64,000 nt of DNA from Candidatus Stygibacter australis (GTDB lineage Bacteria; Cloacimonadota; Cloacimonadia; Cloacimonadales; TCS61), in contig JAVCDJ010000203.1 of NCBI GenBank assembly GCA_030765845.1, forward strand, positions 12,942 to 76,941, read 5' to 3'. Every line of letters begins with the position of its first letter. The first letter of the stretch is position 1. Positions 7,451-56,298 of the stretch are shown here, piece by piece. The translations under genes were made by a program, and so were the position numbers. The notes below the pieces were generated by a model. The model was not told where the DNA came from. It did no database searches and saw nothing but the letters and a program-made list of their open reading frames with translations.

Positions 7451-8353
7451 TTATGTCAAATTAAAGAAAAGGTCAGCGCAGGTGATAGCACTATTCCAGC
7501 AGTCCTGTTTATCTTCCAGACACCAGCAGGCGGATAGCACTGATTGGCAGTAAGCCATCATTGCTATCTGCTGAGGATGATAACCCAGGATTTCAGAGAA
7601 TATTGCCAGCCGGGCTTCAATGATACTGTTCAGTTCATGATATTTCAGGAATTGCATGGGGTTATACATAAAGCAGGCAGTTTCATAGAGCGGATTTCCG
7701 ATCACGCCTTTAGGATCAATGATGCGCCATTTATCACCATCACTGAGGATATTATAATGATGCAGATCCCCGTGTAATAGTGCATCATGATCCTTTGCGC
7801 TTTCCAGCTCTTGGAACATTGAGCTGGCATTATGAAGATAACCGGGCGGGATCAAAGGGTCCGGGGACGAAAGAAAATCTGATAATTTACTAAACCAGCC
7901 TTTCAGAGTAGGGAAACTATATTGAGCTTTCTGGGAGGATTTTAAGTCATGGATCAGAGTAGCAGTGATAATATTCTGCTTTTCTTCATCTTCAATGGAA
8001 TGCAAAGGTTTTCCAGGAAATAATCTGGGAAGCAGAATAGCCCCGTTGGGCTTATCAACCGCCAAAGGCTTCAGCAGATGTTCACTTTTTATTTCACTCA
8101 GGGCAGCGATTTCAGAATCGATACCAGACCAGGGACAGCCAATTTTAAGAAAAGCGGATTGGGCATTATTAATCTGGCAAAAAGCAGTAAAATTATAATT
8201 AGAATCTGAGAGTGGAATAATATCACTTAATCCCCATAATTCAGCCAGCTCAGAGATTGTTTCAGGCAGTTCATTCAGCCATTTTTTACCCTTTTCACCA
8301 AAGCGATCTAACACCCATTTGGTAAAAGCAGCTTGATTTATTGAATTTTTCAT
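7451..8353 (-). CDS. Aminoglycoside phosphotransferase (APH)-fold small-molecule kinase, substrate unknown
   Basis: Catalytic loop 'LLHGDLHHYNIL' followed by 'RIIDPKGVIGNPLYE', an APH/choline-kinase-type HGDLHxxN...D motif. Its ATG overlaps the stop of the upstream GHMP kinase as ATGA (8350-8353). Confidence 0.7.
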   Translation of the reverse strand: MKNSINQAAFTKWVLDRFGEKGKKWLNELPETISELAELWGLSDIIPLSDSNYNFTAFCQINNAQSAFLKIGCPWSGIDSEIAALSEIKSEHLLKPLAVDKPNGAILLPRLFPGKPLHSIEDEEKQNIITATLIHDLKSSQKAQYSFPTLKGWFSKLSDFLSSPDPLIPPGYLHNASSMFQELESAKDHDALLHGDLHHYNILSDGDKWRIIDPKGVIGNPLYETACFMYNPMQFLKYHELNSIIEARLAIFSEILGYHPQQIAMMAYCQSVLSACWCLEDKQDCWNSAITCADLFFNLT

Positions 8354-9468
8354 TCTAAGTAATTGACATCCAGACCAGTATGTTGATTGATAAGGAATGT
8401 CTTCCCACCGGATTTTGTGATAGCTGCTGCCACTTCCTGAGGATTTTCCGGTGCATAAACAAAAAGGCAGCCGCCACCGCCTGAACCATTTATTTTACCA
8501 CCATAAGCTCCTGCTTCAAGTGCGGCTGAGAGCATTTTGTTGATCTTTTCAGTGCTTATGCCCAGATATTTATCAAGATAATGATGATGTTTATTGAGCA
8601 GCTTGCCAACCAGGTGGTGATCGGGATTCTCTCTTGAAAGCAATTGATAGGCATCTCGGGTGATATTGCGATTTATCAGCATTGCCTTTGTTGTTTGATA
8701 TTCCTGAGCAGTTAATATTTTTCTAAATTCCGCAAGGTGTTCGTGAGAGAAATCAGCAAAACTGAATTGATTCCCGGTTGCTTTTATTTTGCGAGTTGCA
8801 GCTAGAGCAGGTTCTTTGGTTCTGGCTAAAATCTGTCTGGTATTTTTGGGTTGACCTGAATCCCCCAGCACAAAAGTTCCCAGTTTAGCAGGCAGAATTT
8901 CTATTCGGTTATTATCAGCAAAATCTATATAGATAATATTGCCGAAAGCCGTGGAAAGCTGATCCATCATTCCGCCAGGTTCCTGGAATTCTATCACTTC
9001 TGCCTGATAGGAAAAATGCCCTACTGCCTCTGGCTCTTTCCAGGCCGGAAGCACATAATCCCCAATTTCCAGCAGGAATCTGCACCAGGCATTATTCAAA
9101 GCTGAGGAAGAAGAAGTTCCCGAATTAATGGGAATATTGCCCTGAACCAGGCAATCATACCCTCTGGTAAAGCGAATTCCCTGGCGAAATAGTACATTAT
9201 ATATGCTGCGGAAATAATCACGTTCACAAGTATAGCAAAACTCCTTACCATCAGAAAAATCAAGTATTTGCTCAGCATTGATATCTGGCAAAAGTATCTT
9301 GAAAACCTGATCTTGGCGTGGAGTGCAGGAGATATTTACCCGCAGATCTATAGCCATAGCGATCACAGGCAGTTGCAGATAATCCTGATGTTCACCAAAT
9401 AAACAGATCCTGCCAGGTGCAGAAACCGTGATTTCTTTTGGCAGCTTGTTTTTTAGTTTAAATTCCAC
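8350..9468 (-). CDS. GHMP-family (galactokinase-like) sugar kinase
   Basis: N-terminal 'SAPGRICLFGEHQDYLQLPVIAMAI', GHMP motif II 'NIPINSGTSSSSAL', motif III 'GGKINGSGGGGCLFVYA'. Confidence 0.8.
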   Translation of the reverse strand: MEFKLKNKLPKEITVSAPGRICLFGEHQDYLQLPVIAMAIDLRVNISCTPRQDQVFKILLPDINAEQILDFSDGKEFCYTCERDYFRSIYNVLFRQGIRFTRGYDCLVQGNIPINSGTSSSSALNNAWCRFLLEIGDYVLPAWKEPEAVGHFSYQAEVIEFQEPGGMMDQLSTAFGNIIYIDFADNNRIEILPAKLGTFVLGDSGQPKNTRQILARTKEPALAATRKIKATGNQFSFADFSHEHLAEFRKILTAQEYQTTKAMLINRNITRDAYQLLSRENPDHHLVGKLLNKHHHYLDKYLGISTEKINKMLSAALEAGAYGGKINGSGGGGCLFVYAPENPQEVAAAITKSGGKTFLINQHTGLDVNYLE

Positions 9469-9478
9469 AAATCCCTTA

Positions 9479-18840: not shown

Positions 18841-19743
18841 TTATGAAGATTTTTCTAGTAAAATATTTGATTTACGTGCCATACGCCTTGCTTTATCAGA
18901 GAAGATGATAATACCGGCAATGATAATCGTGATACCAATGATTTCTAATTTTCCTGGTAGATAACCAGGAAGAATGATCATCTGGATAAAAATAGGCATG
19001 GCAATGAAAGTGGCATTAAAATGGGGAATAAATTGCGAAGCATTAACTCTACGGCTGTAGGCATGCTGAGTGATCAGCAACGATGCAGTGGAAGCAGCAA
19101 AACTTAAGAGAAATAAGACCCAGCCCGTTGTATGCATGGGAAATACACCACTATGAAAAGAGAAATTTTGTCCCGTAGCTTTCAAAATGGGATCAAGGCA
19201 GGCGATTAAACCCGCAATCAGACCAGAGATCATAGCATCAATAAAGATATGTTTACTTCTGACTGCTATTTTTAAAAGTATCGGAGTTAGAATAATTACT
19301 GCCAGCAGAAGATAGATAAGATTTGTCAGTTTCACCATTTCCATTACAACAGGTTTTGAATCCCGGGCAGCAATTCCCAGTAAGCAACTGCCGATTATGA
19401 TTATAATGATTCCCAGCCAGTTATGCAATGAAGTTTTTTCATGCATCACATATCGAGTGAATAGCAGCATGGGCAGCATCCCAATACCATACATGGCAGT
19501 GAAATAAGAAATTGTACCATATCTGGCTGCCAGAATCACAAATACCACACAGGCATTGGATAGAACGATACCAAGGATATAGACAAAATCATTACGGGAA
19601 AGCCTTTCATGAGGGGTTTTACCCGAAATATTCACTAGCAGTCGATCATAGGAGTGAATACCTAATCTTTGCAGACTACGGGCAAAATGGAGAATAATTG
19701 AATATATTATTCCCAGACTGATAACGATTAAGTTATTACTCAA
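18841..19743 (-). CDS. Polytopic membrane protein, DMT-superfamily (EamA/NIPA-like) transporter
   Basis: 300 aa with ~9-10 hydrophobic helices in two similar halves. No soluble domain. The family call is tentative. Confidence 0.4.
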   Translation of the reverse strand: MSNNLIVISLGIIYSIILHFARSLQRLGIHSYDRLLVNISGKTPHERLSRNDFVYILGIVLSNACVVFVILAARYGTISYFTAMYGIGMLPMLLFTRYVMHEKTSLHNWLGIIIIIIGSCLLGIAARDSKPVVMEMVKLTNLIYLLLAVIILTPILLKIAVRSKHIFIDAMISGLIAGLIACLDPILKATGQNFSFHSGVFPMHTTGWVLFLLSFAASTASLLITQHAYSRRVNASQFIPHFNATFIAMPIFIQMIILPGYLPGKLEIIGITIIIAGIIIFSDKARRMARKSNILLEKSS

Positions 19744-19893
19744 TAAAACACCTCTTACTAATAAACTTAGAGAAATTAATGATTTACAAAACCAATGATT
19801 TTCTGCTGAAAACGTTGAACAGATACGAGGGATCGTAGTAATGCGTCAAGGATTTTGAGAAGTTAGTAAAACTGATGGTTTATTCCTGAAAAG

Positions 19894-19931
19894 TGTTCGG
19901 TGCTGAACGCGCAGGTGTTCGCTGGCGTACA
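19894..19931 (+). promoter_or_regulatory. Dual palindromic upstream activator sites (putative bEBP binding), cassette 1
   Basis: TGTTCGGTGCTGAACG (19894-19909) and TGTTCGCTGGCGTACA (19916-19931) are 22 bp apart centre to centre. They fit the pattern T-GTWC-N6-GWAC-R. An IHF-like TATCAGtcatTTA lies at 19966-19978. Confidence 0.6.
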
Positions 19932-19983
19932 GTATTAATTGAGAGCTAATTCCTAAGATACTAATTATCAGTCATTTATGGTT

Positions 19984-19999
19984 TGGCACGGTTATTGCA
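19984..19999 (+). promoter_or_regulatory. Sigma-54 (-24/-12) promoter, cassette 1
   Basis: TGGCACGgttaTTGCA is an exact match to the TGGCACG-N4-TTGCW consensus. It lies 35 nt upstream of the smORF A ATG. Confidence 0.8.
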
Positions 20000-20033
20000 T
20001 TAAGATATAGTATAATGTGATGGAGGCAGAAAG

Positions 20034-20105
20034 ATGAAAAAGATGAAAAAGAGTATTTTAGCTAGATGGAATGAAAGAAAAGCAAGATTTGGAGGTACAC
20101 GATGA
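20034..20105 (+). CDS. Micro-protein A (23 aa) MKKMKKSILARWNERKARFGGTR
   Basis: GGAGG at 20022-20026 sits 7 nt before the ATG. The nucleotide sequence is identical in all three cassettes. The stop overlaps the start of smORF B (ATGA). Confidence 0.65.
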   Translation: MKKMKKSILARWNERKARFGGTR

Positions 20106-20167
20106 AGCACACTAAACTCGTAAGTAAGTGGAATGAGCGTCGTAATCGTTATGTAGGAAGGCGGTAA
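20102..20167 (+). CDS. Micro-protein B (21 aa) MKHTKLVSKWNERRNRYVGRR
   Basis: GGAGG at 20091-20095 sits 6 nt before the ATG. It is a paralogue of A (shared xxWNER[KR]xR[FY]xG). Differences between copies are mostly synonymous. Confidence 0.65.
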   Translation: MKHTKLVSKWNERRNRYVGRR

Positions 20168-20194
20168 TGAGACGGGCTCAGAAAATCCCCTAAT

Positions 20195-20227
20195 CCGGTA
20201 AAAATTCTAATTTTTACCGGTTTTTTA
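20195..20227 (+). terminator. Intrinsic terminator, cassette 1
   Basis: A 10-bp stem ccggtaaaaa / tttttaccgg with loop ttctaa, followed by TTTTTT. Confidence 0.8.
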
Positions 20228-20412
20228 TTTCCTAAATAATATTCCAAGATAAGTGCAATTTCATTTAGAGGCAACCTCCCAGTTCTCCTTATCAATTTCA
20301 ATGATTTTCAAATTCATGTAATTTAATTATTCTGTAGAAATAAGAAAGAGATGTAATAACAATTCAAAGATTTTGAGTGATTAGTAAATTATGCCGGATA
20401 ATCCCATAAAAG

Positions 20413-20450
20413 TGTTCGGTGCTGAACGAGCAGGTGTACGCTGGCGTACA
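20413..20450 (+). promoter_or_regulatory. Dual palindromic upstream activator sites, cassette 2
   Basis: TGTTCGGTGCTGAACG (20413-20428) and the perfect 16-bp palindrome TGTACGCTGGCGTACA (20435-20450). An IHF-like TATCAGcagcTTA lies at 20485-20497. Confidence 0.6.
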
Positions 20451-20502
20451 GTATTAATTTTGGGTAAAATCTTAAGATACTAATTATCAGCAGCTTATGG
20501 TT

Positions 20503-20518
20503 TGGCACGGTTCTTGCA
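20503..20518 (+). promoter_or_regulatory. Sigma-54 (-24/-12) promoter, cassette 2
   Basis: TGGCACGgttcTTGCA. Confidence 0.8.
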
Positions 20519-20552
20519 TTAAGATATAGTATAATGTGATGGAGGCAGAAAG

Positions 20553-20624
20553 ATGAAAAAGATGAAAAAGAGTATTTTAGCTAGATGGAATGAAAGAAAA
20601 GCAAGATTTGGAGGTACACGATGA
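20553..20624 (+). CDS. Micro-protein A, copy 2 (23 aa, identical)
   Basis: Same 72-nt sequence and Shine-Dalgarno as copy 1. Confidence 0.65.
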   Translation: MKKMKKSILARWNERKARFGGTR

Positions 20625-20686
20625 AGCACACTAAACTAGTAAGCAAGTGGAATGAGCGTCGTAATCGTTATGTAGGAAGGCGGTAA
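20621..20686 (+). CDS. Micro-protein B, copy 2 (21 aa, identical protein)
   Basis: Differs from copy 1 only by synonymous changes: CTC>CTA (Leu6) and AGT>AGC (Ser8). Confidence 0.65.
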   Translation: MKHTKLVSKWNERRNRYVGRR

Positions 20687-20712
20687 TGAGACGGGCTCAG
20701 AAAATCCCCTAA

Positions 20713-20747
20713 TCCGGTAAAAATTCTAATTTTTACCGGATTTTTTA
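20713..20747 (+). terminator. Intrinsic terminator, cassette 2
   Basis: Stem tccggtaaaaa / tttttaccgga followed by TTTTTT. Confidence 0.8.
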
Positions 20748-21093
20748 TGGTCATATTCTGAGAATATGTGCTTCTAATTTGCCGGCAGATATTGATATTG
20801 CGCAGGTTTGATCTTTAGCTCAATTGTCGCTTCCCGGTTCACTTTATTAATTTCAATGATTTTTACAAACTAATTTCTCAATTTATCATTATTATTGGAT
20901 ACAGCATTTGAGAAAAAACATGAAAAGTCAAGCTCAGCCAGCAAAAAAATAAGCAATTCAAACAATATCCACTTACTCGATGAGATACATCTATTCATGT
21001 TATTGAAATATTCTGAAGAAATAAGAAAGAGATCGTAATGACAGATCAAGGGTTTGAGCGGTAAGACAATTATGACAGTTTATTCCCCTAAAG

Positions 21094-21131
21094 TGTTCGG
21101 TGTTGAACGAGCAGGTGTACGCAGGCGCACA
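21094..21131 (+). promoter_or_regulatory. Dual palindromic upstream activator sites, cassette 3
   Basis: TGTTCGGTGTTGAACG (21094-21109) and TGTACGCAGGCGCACA (21116-21131), with the same 22-bp offset. Confidence 0.55.
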
Positions 21132-21183
21132 GTATTAATTGATGGAAAATCTCTAAGACACTAATTAACAATAACTTATGGTT

Positions 21184-21199
21184 TGGCACGGTTCTTGCA
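21184..21199 (+). promoter_or_regulatory. Sigma-54 (-24/-12) promoter, cassette 3
   Basis: TGGCACGgttcTTGCA. Confidence 0.8.
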
Positions 21200-21233
21200 T
21201 TAGTATATAGTATAATGTGATGGAGGCAAAAAG

Positions 21234-21305
21234 ATGAAAAAGATGAAAAAGAGTATTTTAGCTAGATGGAATGAAAGAAAAGCAAGATTTGGAGGTACAC
21301 GATGA
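21234..21305 (+). CDS. Micro-protein A, copy 3 (23 aa, identical)
   Basis: Same 72-nt sequence as the other copies. The Shine-Dalgarno GGAGG is retained. Confidence 0.65.
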   Translation: MKKMKKSILARWNERKARFGGTR

Positions 21306-21367
21306 AGCACACTAAACTTGTAAGCAAGTGGAATGAGCGTCGTAATCGTTATGCCGGAAAGCGGTAA
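21302..21367 (+). CDS. Micro-protein B, copy 3 (21 aa) MKHTKLVSKWNERRNRYAGKR
   Basis: The Leu6 codon is CTT, a third synonymous variant. There are two conservative replacements near the C-terminus (V18A, R20K). Confidence 0.6.
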   Translation: MKHTKLVSKWNERRNRYAGKR

Positions 21368-21392
21368 TGAGACGGCCCAGAAAAATCCCTAA

Positions 21393-21430
21393 TCCGGTAA
21401 AAATCAATAGTTTTTACCGGATTTTTTTTT
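21393..21430 (+). terminator. Intrinsic terminator, cassette 3
   Basis: Stem tccggtaaaaa / tttttaccgga with loop tcaatag, followed by a T9 run. Confidence 0.8.
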
Positions 21431-21562
21431 GGATAATATGCTGAAATAATATAGTATCTTAATGTGCTGCTGATGAAAAATATCTGAAATTTATTCAATG
21501 TTTATTGACTTATGCCATATAATTTATTCAATTTGCCTGATTAATTACGGAGGAAAAGAAAT

Positions 21563-22528
21563 ATGAAAATTAGCTGGATTTTAATAATATCAATACTGAT
21601 AAACTGGGGAGTGGTTATGGCTGATACAGCAGAAATATTGCCTGGAAGCGGACCAGGAAGTTATGAGATAAAATCAGATACTTCTGAAGTACGACTGAAT
21701 TTTGAATATTTTGGTGAAAATATATTGATTCGCGGGAAAATGCAGGGCAAAGAAGTAAAATTTCTGATTGATAACGGTTCCTTGTGGGATCAAGTCTGGT
21801 TTTATGCTGGTGAGGATGAGACAATTGGCTTGCGGTATAAGGACGATGAGGAGCATTCTGTGACCGGTATCGGAAAAGATGGTGGTTCTTCAATCTATGA
21901 TGGTGAAGATATAGATATAGATTTTGGTGAGATCATCTTCCATGAGCAACCCTGCCTGATATCTCCACCCGAATCAGGATTTGGAGATTATTTTCCCGGT
22001 GTCGCTGGACAGGTATGTTCATTGTTTTTTAAACATTTTGTCGTAAAATTTGATTTTGAGAATATGAAAATTATTCTCACAAAACCAGAGGAATTTGAAT
22101 TTTCCGGCACTGGTGCTGCTCTGCCCATGAGTCCTGTTGGAGGTGATTCATATAGCGTACCATTTAGAATAACTACTGCTGAGGACGTGGAGATAGATAT
22201 CAATCTTGATATTGATCTGGGTACTATTTATAATTTCTACCTGATTGAAAATGAATCTTATGGGATCAAAATACCAGTGGGAGTAGAAAAAACCTTGATC
22301 GGTTATGGAGCCTCAGGAGCATTATATGGTTACCAGGGAGTGCTCAAAAAAGTGCAGCTCGGAGATTTTACGCTGCAGGATATTCCGGCAGAATTTGTGC
22401 AAGCCGATGCTAGTTTAGATAACTCTATAGTTAAGTTAGGCACATTTGGCCTACCATTGATGAAGAGATTTAATATCACTTTTGATTATTTCAATAAAGT
22501 GATGTATTTTGAGAAAAGACCAGAATAA
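21563..22528 (+). CDS. Secreted protein, possible bilobal retropepsin-like aspartyl-protease fold
   Basis: Signal peptide 'MKISWILIISILINWGVVMA'. Two D-x-G-[ST] motifs sit in hydrophobic contexts ('KFLIDNGSLWD', 'DIDLGTIYNF'). The first is DNGS rather than the canonical DTGA/DSGA, so activity is uncertain. Confidence 0.35.
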   Translation: MKISWILIISILINWGVVMADTAEILPGSGPGSYEIKSDTSEVRLNFEYFGENILIRGKMQGKEVKFLIDNGSLWDQVWFYAGEDETIGLRYKDDEEHSVTGIGKDGGSSIYDGEDIDIDFGEIIFHEQPCLISPPESGFGDYFPGVAGQVCSLFFKHFVVKFDFENMKIILTKPEEFEFSGTGAALPMSPVGGDSYSVPFRITTAEDVEIDINLDIDLGTIYNFYLIENESYGIKIPVGVEKTLIGYGASGALYGYQGVLKKVQLGDFTLQDIPAEFVQADASLDNSIVKLGTFGLPLMKRFNITFDYFNKVMYFEKRPE

Positions 22529-41446: not shown

Positions 41447-41533
41447 GCTACCTCCTAATTTCTCCCCACATTCATTATCCACTTCCAAATGTCAATTCCT
41501 TTCAAAAAATGAACAACCCCGCCAAGTCAGATG

Positions 41534-41679
41534 TGCACCGCTGGCGTATTCCGCAAGTGGGGCGCAGATGACGACCGCAATCAACCAATCCATGAAAATA
41601 GCTAAGGTGGAAAATATAGATTGCTGCTGAAAACTGCCCGTAGTTCTCGCCCCACTTCCGGAGTACCGTTAGCGGTGCA
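41534..41679 (+). other. GC-rich 146-nt imperfect hairpin (30-bp basal stem); candidate structured ncRNA or miniature inverted-repeat element
   Basis: The arms 41534-41564 and 41648-41679 pair over about 30 positions with one bulge and one mismatch. Three pairs are G-T, which can pair only if the plus strand is the RNA. An inner gcaatc/gattgc stem lies at 41577-82 / 41619-24. The element is much more GC-rich than its surroundings. Confidence 0.4.
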
Positions 41680-41860
41680 GGTCCTATTAATTTTGGAAAT
41701 TATCAAATGTTCGCTCTAATCAAAGATGTTTTTGTGAAACATGCTCCCCCAAATCAGACATTTTCAGCTAAAATCCATCAAAATATGACCTTTAGGGCAT
41801 TTAAGACCTATAACTACTATAAATAATATTCACTTAGCCCCTAAAGTGGATTTGAGGAGG

Positions 41861-41910: not shown

Positions 41911-42066
41911 ACACATTAAGGGTGGGTAATGGGCGGGTGTGGTACAGGTGTTTTAGGGGATAATAGCTGAAAATTGGTGAGAATTGGGGTGGGAAAATGG
42001 ACTTTATAGACATGATGGATGAAGTGGACGTAAGGTTATGATTTTATCCTAAAATGAGATTTCGGG

Positions 42067-42104
42067 TGTACGCTGGCGAACAGTGTTCTGTTCACAGGCG
42101 TACA
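42067..42104 (+). promoter_or_regulatory. Dual palindromic upstream activator sites for the adaptor/ABC/FtsX operon
   Basis: TGTACGCTGGCGAACA (42067-42082) matches the cassette-2 palindrome at 15 of 16 positions. TGTTCACAGGCGTACA lies at 42089-42104. The 22-bp offset is the same as in the cassettes. Confidence 0.6.
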
Positions 42105-42140
42105 GTCCGGGGGATAGTGAAAATATGATAAATTTATGTA

Positions 42141-42153
42141 TATCAGGCGTTTA
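42141..42153 (+). promoter_or_regulatory. IHF-like site (WATCAR-N4-TTR)
   Basis: TATCAGgcgtTTA lies just upstream of the -24 element. The same motif and position occur in cassettes 1 and 2. Confidence 0.35.
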
Positions 42154-42159
42154 TGAGAG

Positions 42160-42175
42160 TGGTACGCAAATTGCA
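42160..42175 (+). promoter_or_regulatory. Sigma-54 (-24/-12) promoter of the exporter operon
   Basis: TGGTACGcaaaTTGCA (GG-N10-GC spacing intact), 38 nt upstream of the ATG at 42213. Confidence 0.7.
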
Positions 42176-42212: not shown

Positions 42213-43466
42213 ATGGATAGAAAAATTGAGAAGAAGAAATGGACGACAAAGAAGATAATTCTGCTGGTTGTGGCAGTGGTAGTTATTGGCTTAGTGTTAT
42301 ACAGCGCAATCTGGGGAGATCATCGGAGTAAATTCAATGTTCAGACTGACCGTATAACTATTGAAGAAGTAGTGGAAGATTATTTTCAGGATTATATCAC
42401 AGTAACCGGTCGGGTGGTACCGAGCCGGACAGTTTATCTTGATGCCATGGAAGGTGGCAGGGTAGAAGAAGTGTTTTTGGAAGAAGGCTCATTAGTAGAA
42501 GAAGGTGATATAATATTGCGGTTAAGCAATGCGAATCTATATTTGAGCATAATGAACCGTGAAGCAGATCTGGCAGATCAGATCAATAATCTGCGTAGCA
42601 CACGATTATCTATGGAACAGAACAAACTGAGCCTGCGTCAGCAGCTTTTGGAAGTAAATTATCAGCTTGAGCAGCAGCAGCGAGATTATGCCCAGAAGCA
42701 GAAGCTATATGAGCAGGAATTCATTTCAGAAGAGGATTATTTACGCTCCCAGGAAGCATATCAATATTCTTTACAGCGTCAAAGTCTGGTGGTTGAGAGC
42801 CAGAAAACGGATTCCTTATTCCGGGCAATTCAGATCGAGCAGCTTGAGAATTCAGTTACCAATATGGAAGAGAATCTGGGCATGGTCCGAGATAAACTGG
42901 AGAATTTGAATGTACGCGCACCTATTAGTGGACAGCTTGTATCTTTGAATGCAGAGATAGGAGAAGCTAAATCCCAGGGACAGAGATTGGGTGAAATTAA
43001 TGTAGTAGGATCTTATAAGATCAATATGGATGTAGATGAGCATTATATTTCACGGATAAATCGAGATTTAATGGGTGAATTTGAATTTGCAGGAGGTACC
43101 TATCAATTAAAGGTAAGCAAGATCTATCCAGAAGTTCAGAACGGCAGGTTTAGTGTGGATCTGGAATTTTCTGGTGAAGAATACCCCGAGAATTTACGAA
43201 CGGGCCAGACTTTTAGAATTAAATTGGAATTAGGCGAATCGAGTATGGCACTATTATTACCTCGAGGTGGTTTTTATCAAAGTACTGGAGGGCAGTATGT
43301 GTTTGTGATCAATCCCGATGGCAAGAGTGCGGATCAGCGGGAGATAAGATTAGGCAGAATGAATCCGCGCTATTATGAAGTTCTGGAAGGACTGGAAGCT
43401 GGAGAAAGAGTTATCATATCAAGTTATACAAATTTTGGCAGAGCCGAAAAATTAATATTAAAATAA
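42213..43466 (+). CDS. HlyD/MacA-type periplasmic adaptor (membrane fusion protein)
   Basis: N-terminal TM anchor. Lipoyl-like 'VEEGDIILRL'. A long coiled-coil hairpin at aa ~110-225. 'VRAPISGQLVSLNAEIGE' and a C-terminal beta-barrel region. Confidence 0.85.
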   Translation: MDRKIEKKKWTTKKIILLVVAVVVIGLVLYSAIWGDHRSKFNVQTDRITIEEVVEDYFQDYITVTGRVVPSRTVYLDAMEGGRVEEVFLEEGSLVEEGDIILRLSNANLYLSIMNREADLADQINNLRSTRLSMEQNKLSLRQQLLEVNYQLEQQQRDYAQKQKLYEQEFISEEDYLRSQEAYQYSLQRQSLVVESQKTDSLFRAIQIEQLENSVTNMEENLGMVRDKLENLNVRAPISGQLVSLNAEIGEAKSQGQRLGEINVVGSYKINMDVDEHYISRINRDLMGEFEFAGGTYQLKVSKIYPEVQNGRFSVDLEFSGEEYPENLRTGQTFRIKLELGESSMALLLPRGGFYQSTGGQYVFVINPDGKSADQREIRLGRMNPRYYEVLEGLEAGERVIISSYTNFGRAEKLILK

Positions 43467-43479
43467 AACTGGAGGAACA

Positions 43480-44169
43480 ATGATCAAGACAAACAATTTA
43501 ATGAAGGTGTATCGTACAGACGAAGTGGAAACCCTGGCATTGAATAACGTGAATATTCACGTGGAAGCAGGAGAATTTGTGGCAATAATGGGACCCTCAG
43601 GTTGTGGGAAATCCACATTACTGAATGTGATCGGACTTTTGGATAATCCCACAGACGGTGAGTATTTCTTTAATAGTACCGATGTGGCAAAGTTCAAGGA
43701 ACGTCAGCGTACTAATATGCGTAAATCAAATGTAGGCTTTATCTTTCAGAGTTTTAATCTGATTGATGAGCTTACTGTTTATGAGAATGTGGAGCTGCCT
43801 TTATTATATCTTAAGATGGCGGCAAGTGAACGTAAGGCAAGAGTAAATGAGGTATTGGATAGAATGAAGATAGCTCATAGAGCCAAGCATTTTCCGCAGC
43901 AGCTTTCTGGTGGACAGCAGCAGCGCGTGGCAGTTGCCCGTGCCGTGATCACTAATCCCAAGCTGATACTTGCAGATGAGCCTACTGGAAATCTGGATAG
44001 TGCCAATGGAGAAGAAGTGATGGATATGCTTACACAGTTAAATGAAGCCGGAACTACCATTGTGATGGTAACTCACTCACCTACAGATGCAGAATATGCA
44101 CACCGGATCATCCAATTATTTGATGGTCACATAGTAACCGAGAATATCAAAAAAGAATTTCATTTATAA
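43480..44169 (+). CDS. ABC transporter ATP-binding protein (MacB/LolD-type), copy 1
   Basis: Walker A 'GPSGCGKST', signature '[14 protein letters not shown]', Walker B '[11 protein letters not shown]', H-loop 'VTHS'. Confidence 0.95.
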
Positions 44170-44204
44170 AAACCGATCGGGAGAGTAGAAATAAGGAGAA
44201 TCTA

Positions 44205-46625
44205 ATGTTCTGGAATTATCTCAAAATAGCAGTACGCAATTTAATGCGTAAGAAATTTTATACCATAATCAACATTGCCGGGCTGGCAATAGGGATTTGC
44301 TGTGCTATCATGATCGGGCTTTATGTACAGAATGAGCTTTCTTATGATAAGTATAACGAAGATTATGAGCGCATTTACCGGTTGGAATCACATTTCACGA
44401 TCAATGAAACGGATGATCTTTTTGCGGTAACAGCAATACCTTTGGCTCCGGCAATCAAGCTCGAATTTCCCGAAGATGTTGAGCAATATTGCCGTTACCG
44501 TGCTATGGACAACAATCTTTTTCAGATTGATAACAAGAAGTATTTTGAAGACAATGTTCACTATGCTGATTCTACGGTATTTGAGATATTTTCCTATGAA
44601 TTTTTACGCGGTGAACCATCAGAAGCGCTTGATGACCCCAATGAAATCGTGCTTACTGAAAGCTTTGCCAGACGCATTTTTGGTACACAAGATCCATTAG
44701 GCGAATATCTGGAGACAGGATACGGTTTTGGATTTACCGTTACGGGTGTGATCAAGGATCTGCCGCAAAACAGTCATTTGAACTTTGAGGCTCTTGCTTC
44801 CATGGTAACACTGGCTCAATTTTATGGAGCAGAAACATTTCACAGTCTGGATCCCAATCTTTTCTGGAATGTGGGATTTTACTCATTTATAAAACTAACA
44901 GAGGGCGGATCAATTGACAACATCATGCGAGGTTATCCTGCCTTTAATGAAAAATACATCAAAGCGTTAGGAGAAACCCTCAATGCCAAATTCCAGTTAA
45001 TGGCGCAGCGACTGGATAAAGTGCATTTGAATTCCAAACTGAAATATGAGCTACCTACCGGTAATATGGGGTATGTTTTTATCTTTGGCATTGTAGCACT
45101 TTTTCTATTATTGATAGGCTGCATAAACTACATGAATATGGCGACAGCGCAATCATCAGGACGTGCAACAGAAGTGGGAATCCGCAAAGTAGCAGGAGCG
45201 CAGAGAGGTTCATTGCAAATGCAATTCCTGCTGGAATCAGTAGTGATCAGCATATTTGCTTATGTGTTGGCAGTATTAGCAGTGGAATTGCTCTTGCCGA
45301 CATTTAATGAGCTTGCCGGAAGAGAACTCAGCTTAAACATTGGTGAAAACCTTAATTATTATGGGTTATTTCTGTTGGTGAGCGTAGTGGTGGGATTAGT
45401 ATCGGGTAGTTATCCAGCATTTTACCTATCATCGTTTGTACCCGTGGAAGTACTTAAAGGAAAATTGAGCAAGGGAAGTACAACCTTACGTAAGCTTTTG
45501 GTAGTAGTGCAATTTTCCATATCTATCATCATGATAATCTGTACTCTGGGAGTGGTAAGTCAGCTTAAATTCATGCAGAATACTGATCTGGGATTTGATA
45601 AAGATAATATAGTGGTTTTGACAATTAGAGATACAACGGGAGCCAGAAATCTGGCAACCTTTAGAGATGAGCTTTTGCAGCATCCGAAGATATTGAAAGC
45701 CGGCACATCATCAAGCATACCAGGTAGTGGATATGGTATCATTGTGCAGCGTTTTGAAACAGATGAAGGTGAGATGAGTGAGAAAGCCATCAACTTTGTG
45801 ATGGTTGATGAGAATTATCTGGATGTGATGGATATAAAGATACTATTGGGTAGAGAATTTGATCCTGAACTGGCAACCGATCTGGAAGAAGCCTGCCTGA
45901 TAAATCAAAGCTGTGCAGAAAATCTGGGCTGGGGTGAAAATGCCATTGGCAAGAAACTTGATTTCGGAGCCGCACCAGACGGAACAGCAACCAGAAATAC
46001 ACGCGTGATTGGAGTAGTGAAAGATTTTCATTACACATCTCTGCACAATCTGATTGATCCACTCATATTAATGCTTTCTGATGAGCCATTACAGACAATA
46101 ACGTTACGGATAGATCAAAGTGATCTGGAATCTACCCTGAGTTTTATGGAAGAGAAATGGAACGAATTTTGCCCGACATTTCCTTTCAGCTACGAATTTA
46201 TGGATGACAACCTGAGAGCACAATATGAAGCAGAAGAAAAGACCAGCCGTGTATTTAGTTATTTCACCATTATCTGCATTTTCATTGCCTGTCTGGGACT
46301 TCTGGGCTTAACAGCTTATGCCACGGAGCAAAGGATCAGAGAGATCAGCATCCGTAAAGTACTGGGTGCCACAGAGAAATCAATCGTATATCTGCTAACC
46401 AGCAATTTTGCCATCCTGGTGATAATTTCCAATGTAATAGCCTGGCCTGTTGCCTGGTGGGGAATGAAAAATTGGTTGGAGAATTTTGCCTATAGTACAA
46501 AACTTTCACCACTTATATATGTCGCAGCAGGATTGATAGCATTAATAATTGCCATATTGACAATAAGCATCAGAGCAATACATGCCGCAAGGACAAATCC
46601 GGCAGATGCTTTGAAATACGAATAG
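44205..46625 (+). CDS. Double-FtsX (MacB-like) ABC permease, paralogue 1
   Basis: 806 aa. N-terminus 'NYLKIAVRNLMRKKFYTIINIAGLAIG'. Two periplasmic domains are each followed by an FtsX 3-TM module ('EVGIRKVAGA', 'EISIRKVLGA'). C-terminus 'NPADALKYE'. Confidence 0.9.
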   Translation: MFWNYLKIAVRNLMRKKFYTIINIAGLAIGICCAIMIGLYVQNELSYDKYNEDYERIYRLESHFTINETDDLFAVTAIPLAPAIKLEFPEDVEQYCRYRAMDNNLFQIDNKKYFEDNVHYADSTVFEIFSYEFLRGEPSEALDDPNEIVLTESFARRIFGTQDPLGEYLETGYGFGFTVTGVIKDLPQNSHLNFEALASMVTLAQFYGAETFHSLDPNLFWNVGFYSFIKLTEGGSIDNIMRGYPAFNEKYIKALGETLNAKFQLMAQRLDKVHLNSKLKYELPTGNMGYVFIFGIVALFLLLIGCINYMNMATAQSSGRATEVGIRKVAGAQRGSLQMQFLLESVVISIFAYVLAVLAVELLLPTFNELAGRELSLNIGENLNYYGLFLLVSVVVGLVSGSYPAFYLSSFVPVEVLKGKLSKGSTTLRKLLVVVQFSISIIMIICTLGVVSQLKFMQNTDLGFDKDNIVVLTIRDTTGARNLATFRDELLQHPKILKAGTSSSIPGSGYGIIVQRFETDEGEMSEKAINFVMVDENYLDVMDIKILLGREFDPELATDLEEACLINQSCAENLGWGENAIGKKLDFGAAPDGTATRNTRVIGVVKDFHYTSLHNLIDPLILMLSDEPLQTITLRIDQSDLESTLSFMEEKWNEFCPTFPFSYEFMDDNLRAQYEAEEKTSRVFSYFTIICIFIACLGLLGLTAYATEQRIREISIRKVLGATEKSIVYLLTSNFAILVIISNVIAWPVAWWGMKNWLENFAYSTKLSPLIYVAAGLIALIIAILTISIRAIHAARTNPADALKYE

Positions 46626-46637
46626 GAATATAAAATC

Positions 46638-49070
46638 ATGATACTGAATTATCTAAAAATTGCTTACCGGAATATACTCCGTCAGAAGTTTTATTCACTG
46701 CTGAATATAGCGGGACTGGCTATCAGCATCACCTGTTGTATTTTGATCAGTCTTTATATTCAGGAAGAAGTATCATACGATAAATTTCAGCCAGGTGGAG
46801 AACGTATTTATCGTTTGGTTAACCGGAATAATATGGGGGGGAAGATCGATACTTACTGCAATGCCCCACGACCTATAACCCCTCAAATGAAAGAAATATA
46901 TCCAGAAATAGAAGCAGTAACACGGGTGAGGGGAGCAAATGGATTATACACTCATTCAGCAAATATCTCCTATGAGCAGAATCTGATAGCTTCAGAAAAG
47001 GTATATATTGTGGACTCGACTTTTTTTGATGTTTTTGCCACGGAATTTATTGCTGGTAACCCAAAGGATGGTTTAACCGGAGAAGTTGGAATACTCATCT
47101 CTGAGAGCCTGGCAAAGAAATTGTTTGGATCAGAAGAAGCATTGGGTAAAACCATGCTCTTAGATGAACAATTTCCGATAACTGTTAAAGCAGTATTCAA
47201 AGATCAGCCGGGACGGAGTCATTTTGAATATGAAGCTCTTTTACCCTGGAGGTTAGCTTATAGACAGGGAGAGGAAATTGCCTGGTATGGCTGGCAGGTA
47301 TATCATTATCTAAAATTGTATGAAGGTGCTGATGCAAAAGAGCTTCAGGCAAAATTCCCTCAATTTTTCACTGATTATATGAAAGAGAAATATGATACTC
47401 TGGATGGTACGTCAGAGCTGTCTCTGCAGCCTCTTAAAGATATTCATCTGAAATCAAATCTTATCTGGGAAATGGTTCCTAATGGCAATCTTAATAATTT
47501 ATATATTATGGCATCCATAGGATTATTCTTATTGATAATTGCCTGTATTAATTATGTGAATCTGGCAACAGCCAGATCAGTAAGGCGAGCCAGAGAAGTG
47601 GGGCTCAGGAAATTATTCGGTTCTCCACGAGGACTATTGATCCGCCAGTTTTTAGTGGAATCTATCATTTTATCATTGATTGCTTCTCTGGTTGCACTGG
47701 TCATTGCAGAATTATTATTACCAGTATTTAATAGTATTGCTGTACGGGACATCAGTTTAAATTTATTAAATAATCATGTTCTGATCCTGGGGATTATTGG
47801 ATTAGGAATATTTGTGGGACTTCTGGCAGGAATATATCCGGCATTAGTGTTGTCAAATTTTAGCATTGTGGAAGCAATAAAATCAAGATCAGAAAATGGC
47901 ACAGGTGGTATGGTGCTGCGTAAGATATTAATAGTTATGCAGTTTGCAATTTCAATCACCCTTATCATTTCCACTCTTATTTTGGTTGAGCAGATGAAAT
48001 TTGCCCGGGATATTGATATGGGGTTCAATAAGGAAAATGTGCTGGCAGTTACCGTGCGCGATACACTGGTAGCCAGGAATCTCCAAGTGATCAAACAGGA
48101 ACTCAGAGATAATCCTGAGATAATCTCAGCAGCTTGTTCATTAAATATGCCAGGCACTACTTTTAACCGTTTTCCAGCAACTATTGAAAATAATGAGGGA
48201 GGTTTTAGTCAGACGAGTTGCCAATTCATGCAGATAGATTATGATTTTATTCCCACGATGGATATGACTATAGTTGAAGGCAGAAACTATCAGCGTGATC
48301 AGGAAGAGAATCGTTTTTCAGTGATATTAGTAAATGAAGCTTTAGTGAGAAAATTTGGCTGGGATAACCCAATCGGAAAGCGTGTATTTCTTTATACAGA
48401 TAGCTTAGGCACTGCATTTTATCAGGAAGTGATTGGAGTAGTAAAAGATTTTCATCCCAATTCCGTGCGGCAGGAGATCAGTCCTATGATAATATATCTG
48501 ATCAATGATAATCTGGAAGCACGCAGCGGAGGAAATCTGAATCTGTTTATCCGTTTAAAAGGTGAGAATCTGCATCAGACAATGACTGATATCAAAGATA
48601 TCATTCAGCAATATAATCCTGATGATCCATTTCAGTATGTATTTCTGGATGAACATCTGAGCCGGATGTATGAAGGGGAAGAAAGATTGATCCAGCTTTT
48701 CAGTTATTTTACTATGATGATCATCTTTATAGCCTGTCTGGGATTATTTGGACTGGCATCATTCACGGCAGAAAAGCGAAGAAGAGAAATCGGTATTCGC
48801 AAAGTGCTGGGTGCCACTATCCGTCAGATAGTGCTTTTATTATCAACAGAATTTTCACGCTGGGTGCTATTGGCAAACGTAATCGCCTGGCCCCTTGCCT
48901 GGTATTTCATGAATAAATGGTTAGAGAATTTTGCCTACCACATCCAGATAACTCTTCTTAATTTCATCATCGCCGGTCTGGCAGCCTTAGTGATAGCATT
49001 ATTTACGGTAAGTTTTCAGGCATTAAGGGCAGCAATGAGCAATCCGATAAAATCAATCAGGTATGAGTAA
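46638..49070 (+). CDS. Double-FtsX (MacB-like) ABC permease, paralogue 2
   Basis: 810 aa with the same architecture. 'NYLKIAYRNILRQKFYSLLNIAGLAIS', 'EIGIRKVLGA', C-terminus 'NPIKSIRYE'. Confidence 0.9.
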   Translation: MILNYLKIAYRNILRQKFYSLLNIAGLAISITCCILISLYIQEEVSYDKFQPGGERIYRLVNRNNMGGKIDTYCNAPRPITPQMKEIYPEIEAVTRVRGANGLYTHSANISYEQNLIASEKVYIVDSTFFDVFATEFIAGNPKDGLTGEVGILISESLAKKLFGSEEALGKTMLLDEQFPITVKAVFKDQPGRSHFEYEALLPWRLAYRQGEEIAWYGWQVYHYLKLYEGADAKELQAKFPQFFTDYMKEKYDTLDGTSELSLQPLKDIHLKSNLIWEMVPNGNLNNLYIMASIGLFLLIIACINYVNLATARSVRRAREVGLRKLFGSPRGLLIRQFLVESIILSLIASLVALVIAELLLPVFNSIAVRDISLNLLNNHVLILGIIGLGIFVGLLAGIYPALVLSNFSIVEAIKSRSENGTGGMVLRKILIVMQFAISITLIISTLILVEQMKFARDIDMGFNKENVLAVTVRDTLVARNLQVIKQELRDNPEIISAACSLNMPGTTFNRFPATIENNEGGFSQTSCQFMQIDYDFIPTMDMTIVEGRNYQRDQEENRFSVILVNEALVRKFGWDNPIGKRVFLYTDSLGTAFYQEVIGVVKDFHPNSVRQEISPMIIYLINDNLEARSGGNLNLFIRLKGENLHQTMTDIKDIIQQYNPDDPFQYVFLDEHLSRMYEGEERLIQLFSYFTMMIIFIACLGLFGLASFTAEKRRREIGIRKVLGATIRQIVLLLSTEFSRWVLLANVIAWPLAWYFMNKWLENFAYHIQITLLNFIIAGLAALVIALFTVSFQALRAAMSNPIKSIRYE

Positions 49071-49084
49071 ATGAGGGAAATATT

Positions 49085-51457: not shown

Positions 51458-51463
51458 GCAGCC

Positions 51464-53866: not shown

Positions 53867-53875
53867 GAGTGCATT

Positions 53876-56290: not shown

Positions 56291-56298
56291 AAATTATT

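Follow-up and report, generated by a model that had tools for sequence, protein, structure and literature searches.

Operons that make several very small peptides from one short transcript are exemplified by the PSM-alpha/Pmt system and aureocin A70, which, together with darobactin and its DarBCD proteins, provide precedents for leaderless or exported peptides. In the first two systems, tandem genes for peptides of about 20-30 amino acids (aa), each with its own ribosome-binding site and none with a signal peptide, are controlled by a response regulator and functionally tied to an ABC exporter. A similar arrangement occurs in Candidatus Stygibacter australis, within a stretch of 64,000 nucleotides (nt) of contig JAVCDJ010000203.1 (assembly GCA_030765845.1, positions 12,942 to 76,941; hereafter the window). 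There, three tandem cassettes each carry two overlapping small open reading frames (smORFs), A and B, behind a predicted sigma-54 promoter. PSM-alpha and aureocin peptides form hydrophobic amphipathic helices with a grand average of hydropathy (GRAVY) above 0, whereas the cassette peptides are hydrophilic with a net charge of +5 to +10. Moreover, the described systems are Gram-positive and rely on sigma-70 and AgrA, whereas the cassettes appear to be of the sigma-54/bacterial enhancer-binding protein (bEBP) type in a diderm, and no sequence similarity connects the two. A more distant parallel is Drosophila tarsal-less/polished-rice, which also places several copies of one micro-peptide motif on a short transcript, but is eukaryotic, encodes 11-aa peptides, and differs in chemistry and regulation.

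As components, sigma-54 enhancers and small proteins are already known, and so are polycistronic peptide operons. The peptide family itself, its sigma-54 architecture, and the links to a MacB-type pump and to TldD/PmbA peptidases described below appear to be new to the libraries and literature searched; the literature gave nothing relevant on the family or on sigma-54-controlled micro-proteins in Cloacimonadota, the phylum of the genus Stygibacter, which was described from Ace Lake, Antarctica (PMC8542988). Judged from sequence comparison, each cassette is very probably an autonomous sigma-54-dependent mini-operon of an undescribed family of 19-26-aa, arginine- and lysine-rich micro-proteins found only in Cloacimonadota. 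The broader explanation, which joins the cassettes to a scheme of expression and a role for the peptides, is given a probability of about 0.5.

A repeat search found three direct copies of a unit of about 355 nt (19877-20230, 20396-20749, and 21077-21429), all features discussed here being on the forward strand unless stated otherwise. The 300-nt core of the unit (19877-20176, 20396-20695, and 21077-21376) is 93 and 90% identical to copy 1 in copies 2 and 3, respectively, and a separate 56-nt tail is likewise present three times. Each unit opens with two 16-bp TGT-N10-ACA palindromes, upstream activating sequences (UAS) that lie 22 bp apart, start to start: UAS1, TGTTCGGTG[CT]TGAACG, at 19894, 20413, and 21094, and UAS2, TGTWCGC[TA]GGCG[TC]ACA, at 19916, 20435, and 21116. 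A spacer of exactly 52 nt separates UAS2 from the putative sigma-54 element, TGGCACGGTT[AC]TTGCA, at 19984, 20503, and 21184, which matches TGGCACG-N4-TTGCA without mismatch. In cassette 1, the two enhancer palindromes thus span 19894-19909 and 19916-19931, an IHF-like site, TATCAGTCATTTA (pattern WATCARNNNNTTR), lies at 19966-19978, 5 nt upstream of the -24 element, and the promoter, TGGCACGGTTATTGCA, at 19984-19999, is identified by its consensus match and its conservation across loci. The corresponding enhancer pair of cassette 2, recovered by the palindrome search, is at 20413-20450, with an IHF-like site at the same offset (20485-20497) and the exact-consensus promoter TGGCACGGTTCTTGCA at 20503-20518; in cassette 3, the same search placed the pair at 21094-21131, and the exact-consensus promoter is at 21184-21199. 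Only these three exact consensus matches occur in the 64 kb, all within cassettes. TGT-N10-ACA palindromes are in excess in the window (8 matches against 2.2 expected; none of 100 shuffles reached 8), as are terminator-like sites (5 against 0.8), while the IHF-like motif is not enriched across it.

SmORF A (23 aa, MKKMKKSILARWNERKARFGGTR) begins 7 nt after a GGAGG in all three cassettes (A1, 20034-20105; A2, 20553-20624; A3, 21234-21305) and is nucleotide-identical in the three copies. An ATGA stop/start overlap joins it to smORF B (21 aa), whose ATG follows a second GGAGG, inside A, by 6 nt. B1, MKHTKLVSKWNERRNRYVGRR, occupies 20102-20167; B2 (20621-20686) encodes the same peptide with two synonymous changes; and B3, MKHTKLVSKWNERRNRYAGKR (21302-21367), is a variant that also occurs in the homologous loci L082 and L144. 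Each unit closes with a hairpin of 11-14 pairs and a T-run, at 20195-20227 (11-bp stem, with compensatory pairs across homologues), 20711-20748, and 21391-21432. The first-pass annotation of this DNA had listed these parts apart from the IHF-like site, their order and positions, the 52-nt and 22-bp spacings, and the promoter consensus, and repeat, palindrome, promoter, open reading frame (ORF), and terminator searches recovered all of them in every copy. Comparison of the copies likewise returned the identity of A and the differences it had described in B, where Leu6 is CTC, CTA, and CTT, Ser8 is AGT, AGC, and AGC in copies 1, 2, and 3, and copy 3 has V18A and R20K. The cassettes are spaced 519 and 681 nt apart, so the indel of about 160 bp between them is real. 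Relatives at 85-90% identity hold a single cassette at the orthologous locus, which makes the triplication recent and specific to the Ca. Stygibacter australis genome.

Within the window, the argument for coding is thin: there are six substitutions to draw on, and smORF A is no more conserved than the promoter and leader. Homologues outside the window provide the stronger test. A scan of one genome per GTDB species with a DNA pattern combining the promoter and the WNER peptide motif gave 56 matches, four of them real and all in Cloacimonadota: two Ca. Stygibacter frigidus contigs with near-identical A/B pairs, one metagenome-assembled genome (MAG) with three consecutive smORFs (MKKREFVLRWNERRERYTRS, MKKTNLVSKWQERRERYKGGNK, and MKGTSFITRWYERRTRYAGR), and one MAG with two (MRRREFLKKWNERKARFVK and MKKQNLIDIWNGRRTRYTRR). 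JGI metagenomes, scanned with the peptide motif only and no promoter, yielded 23 loci, and 19 of these belong to the family. Relatives had been suggested as a check by the first-pass annotation, and the two scans together supply about 23 related loci, every taxonomically labelled one belonging to Cloacimonadota, the phylum that the annotation had correctly guessed. The family consensus is M-K-K-x-x-[FL]-[VI]-x-[KR]-W-[NQY]-[ED]-R-[RK]-x-R-[YF], with one to three tandem smORFs per locus. Cassettes fall into group S, the window type with two smORFs, group T with three, and group U with two, the second often GTG-started.

Protein databases added no other relatives. Ten peptides scanned against Pfam and NCBIfam at E-values up to 10 gave nothing meaningful, and the sole match of a PDB profile search was a 9-residue chance match to mL51. 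A profile search of 5.8 billion proteins returned seven matches, each of them an ORF of this family that had been mis-called or extended, and when 1.84 billion representatives were searched by phmmer with P0001, a natural fusion of A and B, the query came back with nothing but a satellite-repeat artefact. A collection of 15 billion predicted proteins has none of the exact peptides, and a pattern of two WNER motifs gave 75 matches in viral contigs, all low-complexity or chance. The view that the peptides match no known family therefore stands: they have no Pfam, NCBIfam, or PDB relative, and the matches in protein databases are to their own family. One further member, MKRENFITKWNERRERYDKRGA (L154 526-900, and L153 2752-2820), has no sigma-54 promoter and lies 33 nt after a tRNA-Leu(taa) gene; it is followed by an overlapping, GTG-started hydrophobic ORF of about 60 aa and then by tRNA-Trp, in very AT-rich DNA.

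Between groups, most nucleotides differ, but the start codon, the frame, a length of 19-23 aa, and mostly the ATGA junctions are kept, and each cistron retains a Shine-Dalgarno (SD) sequence at 5-8 nt. Arginine codons alternate between AGA and CGN among homologues. Orthologues with broken frames would, according to the first-pass annotation, point to an RNA rather than to peptides; start, frame, and SD are instead preserved in more than 55 smORFs from about 30 cassettes, with two single exceptions. In P0001, a metagenomic S-type cassette, A and B have become one 44-aa ORF through a 1-nt change within an A-run, and in the T-type locus L148 (~1275-1343) the middle smORF has ATA instead of ATG. 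Both are possibly pseudogenisation or sequencing errors. Among all unique smORFs, pairwise differences at codon positions 1, 2, and 3 are 0.39, 0.36, and 0.55, and the ratio of non-synonymous to synonymous differences (pN/pS) is 0.49 in frame against 1.07-1.14 in shifted frames. For comparisons inside a group, the in-frame pN/pS is 0.16-0.65, whereas shifted frames give about 0.05-4 (mostly 0.5-4); smORFs that the search pattern could not have selected behave in this way too, and S-group smORF A is the exception.

These data also bear on the proposal that the units are sigma-54-dependent non-coding or dual-function small RNAs (sRNAs), multi-copy in the manner of Qrr or GlmY, with ORFs that are incidental or secondary. 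Like Qrr and other multi-copy sigma-54 sRNAs, which are driven by a bEBP and sigma-54, the units are short, terminator-ended, and present in several copies. The eight copies of S-group smORF A from several genomes (the window, L082, L127, L132, L144, and L145) agree with this proposal as well, having three non-synonymous and no synonymous variable sites, whereas the adjoining smORF B has many synonymous changes. However, what is conserved here is the reading frame and not an RNA structure or seed: frames, starts, SDs, and junctions are maintained over very different nucleotides, and substitutions are biased to third codon positions. The transcript folds with an unremarkable z-score of -0.23, and the terminator is the sole helix with compensatory changes (5 of 8 pairs). 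Rfam has no match at gathering score; the sub-threshold matches, at 21.6-23.5 bits against gathering scores of 42-70, overlap the terminator regions. An sRNA is the least probable of the explanations considered. Since frames, SDs, and junctions persist despite nucleotide divergence, pN/pS is reduced in frame, and RNA structure is lacking, the cassette smORFs are, on comparative grounds, protein-coding genes that look translated. The coding constraint proposed from the window is in this way upheld by homologous cassettes with codon turnover.

The promoter is conserved across the family in the same manner. In 19 unique upstream regions from all groups, TGG-AC, five variable bases, and TTGC form the main block conserved to at least 90%; elsewhere, only scattered single positions and the ATG reach that level. 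Every cassette with upstream sequence has this -24/-12 element 50-55 nt ahead of its first ATG, including those found by the pattern that contained no promoter. The first-pass promoter call gains weight from both observations, and they support the prediction that the cassettes are sigma-54-dependent. In contrast to the promoter, the enhancer differs between groups. The S group and L140 have TGT-N10-ACA sites 22 bp apart and about 52 nt from the promoter, whereas the T and U groups have TTATCA-N3-TGATAA about 115-160 nt upstream; most of their cassettes have two such sites at a distance of 30 bp, and a few have a single perfect one. In the window, the latter pattern has three one-mismatch matches, which are not significant and not near promoters. 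Between their enhancer and the -24 element, T-group cassettes (L081 7003-7025; L133, L143, L148, and L152) contain an additional conserved inverted repeat, GTGTATTA-N6/7-TAATACAC, which may be a site for a second regulator or a bending protein.

A candidate activator is encoded within the phylum: in L156, a REC-Sigma54_activat-HTH_8 protein with ESELFGH and GAFTDA motifs is a canonical enhancer-binding response regulator. The conserved cis-elements suggest a likely scheme of expression. An NtrC-type enhancer-binding response regulator would bind the two TGT-N10-ACA sites, and an IHF-like bend would bring it to the sigma-54 holoenzyme at TGGCACG-N4-TTGCA. The resulting bicistronic mRNA of about 200 nt would end at the hairpin and T-run. 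Ribosomes would load at GGAGG-7-ATG and re-initiate at ATGA with the help of the GGAGG inside A, so that A and B are co-produced, and cassette triplication would provide a threefold dose.

The same regulatory module occurs at a second place in the window. At 42067-42175, two TGT-N10-ACA sites (42067-42082 and 42089-42104) are followed by an IHF-like site, WATCARNNNNTTR, at the offset seen in the cassettes (42141-42153), and a predicted sigma-54 promoter, TGGTACGCAAATTGCA (42160-42175), that is conserved in L155, L156, and L157. It precedes an operon (42213-58677) for an HlyD adaptor (42213-43466), an ABC ATPase, and six similarly sized ORFs of 790-810 aa called as MacB/FtsX permeases; the first of these (44205-46625) is confirmed by Pfam, and the calls for the other five come from ORF size and the gene calls of orthologous loci. 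The HlyD-type protein is 100% identical to one from a Ca. Stygibacter australis MAG. The enhancer pair of cassette 1 recurs, in the window and in L155-L157 alike, upstream of the HlyD operon, and orthologous operons with HlyD identities of 89, 65, and 61% have the same pair of sites and a -24/-12 promoter. In L156 (Ca. Tenebribacter davisii), the pump operon is divergent from genes for its likely regulators, the sigma-54 response regulator and a histidine kinase, the N-terminus of which has two hydrophobic segments, transmembrane by eye, with almost no loop between them. The shared enhancer pair and promoter indicate that the Stygibacter cassettes are wired to the regulator of the pump, and there is good sequence support for placing them in the regulon of a two-component system that controls a MacB-type tripartite pump. 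Synteny with FtsX arrays, which the first-pass annotation had raised, is not the nature of the link; the two are joined by the shared enhancer.

BceRS-BceAB is a close parallel to this wiring, as an operon for an FtsX-type ABC transporter is governed by an adjacent two-component system and the L156 kinase appears to have no extracytoplasmic sensor domain. In Bce-type modules, the kinase senses through the FtsX-type transporter. Differences are also clear: the Bce regulator is of the OmpR type and the present one is an NtrC-type sigma-54 activator, and the pump here is an HlyD/MacB/OEP tripartite assembly with up to 6-9 permease paralogues. Bce regulons are not known to include micro-protein genes. 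The L156-type regulator pair, together with the shared enhancer and promoter, would constitute a Bce-like module for envelope or peptide-antibiotic stress.

The pump cluster (42213-63441) continues beyond the window into L158 14389-21332. After the six permease-sized ORFs it encodes a second ABC ATPase, two type IX secretion system (T9SS)-type proteins, three more MacB/FtsX permeases, and an 89-aa ORF. It closes with an OEP (TolC-like) gene and is convergent at its end with a tldD operon. Upstream of the HlyD enhancer, a non-coding block at 41530-41700 (L155 ~9700-9830), GTAGTTCTCGCCCC…CTTCCGGAGTACCGTTAGCGGTGCARGTCC, is conserved between two Stygibacter species, and about 110 nt upstream of this block the window has an inverted but imperfect copy, TGCACCGCTGGCGTATTCCG. 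A G-rich irregular stretch is found nearby at 41920-42000. Rfam gives no match in this region.

When related loci were compared, no gene neighbourhood was conserved across groups except TldD/PmbA. All U cassettes with downstream sequence lie directly upstream of a TldD/PmbA pair on the same strand. In a fourth subfamily, D, the smORF is the first gene of a smORF-tetR-pmbA-tldD operon on three Stygibacter-clade contigs. The ENA contig k141_452396 (168,477 nt) overlaps the window end base for base, and the window contig carries the D operon about 9.7 kb past that end, beside the OEP gene that closes the pump cluster. The D smORFs (22-26 aa; L158 9203-9280 on the window contig, L155 5450-5370 on the minus strand, and L159 9199-9267) encode MTKNFTQTWNERRTRYTDVGRHQVS, MKTNWTKTWADRRTRYTDVGRHYHFL, and MKTSFTKTWAERRVRYTSFGSN, and their operon has a sigma-70-like TTGACA/TATTTA promoter with a palindromic operator, TTACAC-N5-GTGTAA. 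In L158, the called start of TetR overlaps the smORF and was probably placed too far upstream. The peptidase pairs linked to U and to D are only about 24% identical, which indicates that the association with TldD/PmbA arose twice.

The constant position of U cassettes before tldD/pmbA also raises the possibility that the cassettes are cis-acting translated leaders, in which translating the smORFs, together with a mini-ORF at the end of the unit, modulates read-through of the terminator into downstream genes. Every S and T cassette has an ATG 2-6 nt after the last stop, preceded by an SD-like GGAGG or GGAAGG formed by the last codons (20167-20193, 20686-20712, and 21367-21444 in the window; also L081, L133, L140, L142, L143, L147, L148, and L152). 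In nine T-type sequences, the mini-ORF has 7-9 codons of non-conserved sequence and ends 0-5 nt before the hairpin. In the S type, however, its frame and length vary (8, 11, 24, 25, or 29 codons), and it is frameshifted in window copy 3. The terminators are strong and have compensatory changes, the genes that follow differ between loci and include convergent ones, and attenuation needs neither conservation of the whole peptide nor paralogy of the cistrons. A leader function is therefore very unlikely, and the mini-ORF could be a back-up stop, a vestige of an ATGA junction, or a device coupling the ribosome to the terminator.

TldD/E has been described as a cytoplasmic 'pencil sharpener' that trims unfolded peptides processively, and microcin B17 offers a precedent for a small peptide gene linked to the TldD/PmbA heterodimer, with GyrI-like genes and an ABC exporter nearby (PMC5810440). 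Microcin B17, in contrast to the cassette products, is 69 aa long with a Gly/Ser/Cys-rich core and has McbBCD-type modification genes; the cassettes have neither of the latter two features and encode peptides of about 20 aa. These differences bear on the suggestion that the peptides are precursors of peptides that ribosomes make and that are modified after translation (RiPPs), of the microcin B17 or darobactin type, modified, trimmed by TldD/PmbA, and exported by the ABC pump. TldD/PmbA adjacency in two architectures would suit a RiPP, as would the reported leader-peptidase role of TldD/E in several RiPP pathways. The W-N core of the peptides and the MacB-type exporter in the regulon have a parallel in the darobactin system. 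Nevertheless, Pfam scans of the window neighbours and of more than 10 related loci revealed no radical-SAM, YcaO, MNIO, or other modifying enzyme near cassettes. There is no division into leader and core, the whole peptide of about 20 aa being conserved, and the peptides have no Cys and little Ser or Gly. A RiPP precursor is thus highly improbable.

The chemistry of the peptides provides further indications of their role. Arg plus Lys make up 30-48% of the peptides at the net charge given above, though D-type peptides are less basic (20-23% Arg plus Lys, net charge +3 to +4), and GRAVY values are -1.3 to -2.2. The mean hydrophobicity on the Eisenberg scale is -0.45 to -0.87, the hydrophobic moment is low, and the peptides contain almost no Pro, no hydrophobic stretch, and no signal peptide. 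M1, W10, R13, and R16, with [FL]6 and [YF]17, are invariant or nearly so, conservation spans the whole peptide, and the conserved residues would share one face if the peptides were helical. In hydropathy and charge, they cluster with lambda N, the arginine-rich motif (ARM) of HIV Rev, penetratin, and bTHX; PSMs, delta-toxin, and magainin fall elsewhere. Lambda N, the Rev ARM, and bTHX are also alike in length and in a single conserved Trp or Tyr in an Arg-rich helix. However, no homology was found, and the cassette peptides are free-standing gene products and not parts of larger proteins. By analogy, then, the chemistry resembles that of arginine-rich nucleic-acid binders and is unlike that of membrane-active peptides. 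Type I toxin-antitoxin cassettes of the ldr/ibs kind were considered and rejected, as they do not fit hydrophilic peptides and the absence of an antisense promoter signal above chance in the window. PSMs or leaderless bacteriocins form an amphipathic, largely hydrophobic helix, which the GRAVY range found does not match.

The role tentatively favoured is that of a mass-produced, short-lived effector that acts in the cytoplasm, belongs to a regulon for envelope or peptide-antibiotic stress, and binds a polyanionic or acidic partner. A cytoplasmic location is suggested because the peptides have no signal peptide and are too hydrophilic for membrane insertion. Through a helix face formed by [FL]6, W10, R13, R16, and Y17, they would bind their partner stoichiometrically, candidates being RNA, the ribosome, DNA, or an acidic protein. 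TldD/PmbA, as a protease of unfolded peptides, would reset the peptide level.

Several observations weigh against this explanation. The lack of synonymous variation in S-group smORF A hints at an extra constraint at the nucleotide level, for which the suggested sources are an initiation region that is A-rich and unstructured, the internal SD, and gene conversion. An E. coli-type sigma-70 motif, TTGGCA-17-TATAGT (10/12), overlaps each sigma-54 promoter (19983-20011, 20502-20530, and 21183-21211); it is confined to the S lineage, not being conserved in T and U, and sigma-70-like sites in the window are not above shuffled expectation on either strand. Pfam scans found no bEBP among the genes of the 64-kb window. 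The pump link holds only for Stygibacter-type cassettes and L140, and co-regulation is, on sequence evidence, not a family-wide trait, because the T and U enhancer is TTATCA-N3-TGATAA. Finally, where tandem operons of several peptide paralogues share their regulation with an ABC exporter, the peptides are more typically secreted ones.

This last point leads to the main rival. Under it, the products are leaderless exported peptides (bacteriocin, signal, or auto-inducer) that leave through the HlyD-ABC-MacB/FtsX-OEP pump and are sensed by a pump-coupled intramembrane kinase with nisin-like feedback, and TldD/PmbA and GyrI/Cass2-like proteins serve in processing or self-protection. The enhancer common to the cassettes and the tripartite ABC exporter operon 22 kb away, the OEP gene at the end of the pump cluster, and the paralogous, tandem, translationally coupled, and amplified nature of the peptide genes all agree with export. 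So do the link of the family to TldD/PmbA, which matures microcin B17, and a Cass2/GyrI-like gene found downstream of the cassettes in S-type loci. In contrast, the strongly hydrophilic peptides with their low hydrophobic moment are unlike membrane-active secreted peptides, and selection on them is purifying and not diversifying. Most cassettes in the related loci have no adjoining exporter, and T and U cassettes are under a different enhancer. The first 70 residues of the TldD/PmbA proteins are, by inspection, not signal-peptide-like, so these enzymes are probably cytoplasmic, and MacB pumps are thought to draw their substrates from the periplasm. Export is for these reasons unlikely. A self-sensing circuit, in which the pump expels the peptides, the kinase reads the flux, the sigma-54 activator induces peptides and pump, and TldD/PmbA acts as a cytoplasmic safety valve, is more doubtful still; if true, it would be an auto-inducing peptide or bacteriocin system new to Gram-negative, uncultivated FCB-group bacteria.

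The surroundings of the cassettes differ from those of the relatives at 85-90% identity in two further respects. There, an APH-like kinase gene directly joins an EamA-like gene, and the cassette directly joins the sequence corresponding to window position 22359. Because the relatives directly join the flanking genes, about 10.5 kb of the window (8353-18884) is counted as an insertion; it encodes a GHMP kinase, a 1279-aa AAA/TPR protein, a phospholipase C-like protein, a 1309-aa protein, and PAP2. Window 21449-22358 is also extra sequence and forms most of an Asp-protease-like ORF (21563-22528).

The favoured explanation, that of a cytoplasmic effector made from sigma-54-driven cassettes, concerns genes of 19-26 codons, which are invisible to standard annotation. 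The family has strong support from comparison, its own sigma-54/enhancer architecture, amplified copy number, and recurring links to MacB efflux and TldD/PmbA. Scans of DNA anchored on a promoter or on a peptide motif can recover such micro-protein families from the metagenomes of uncultivated phyla. For the biology of these bacteria, the cassettes would add a micro-protein output to sigma-54 regulons, and they may give access to what TldD/PmbA cleaves physiologically, as well as to the large uncharacterised FtsX/MacB arrays that FCB-group bacteria carry.

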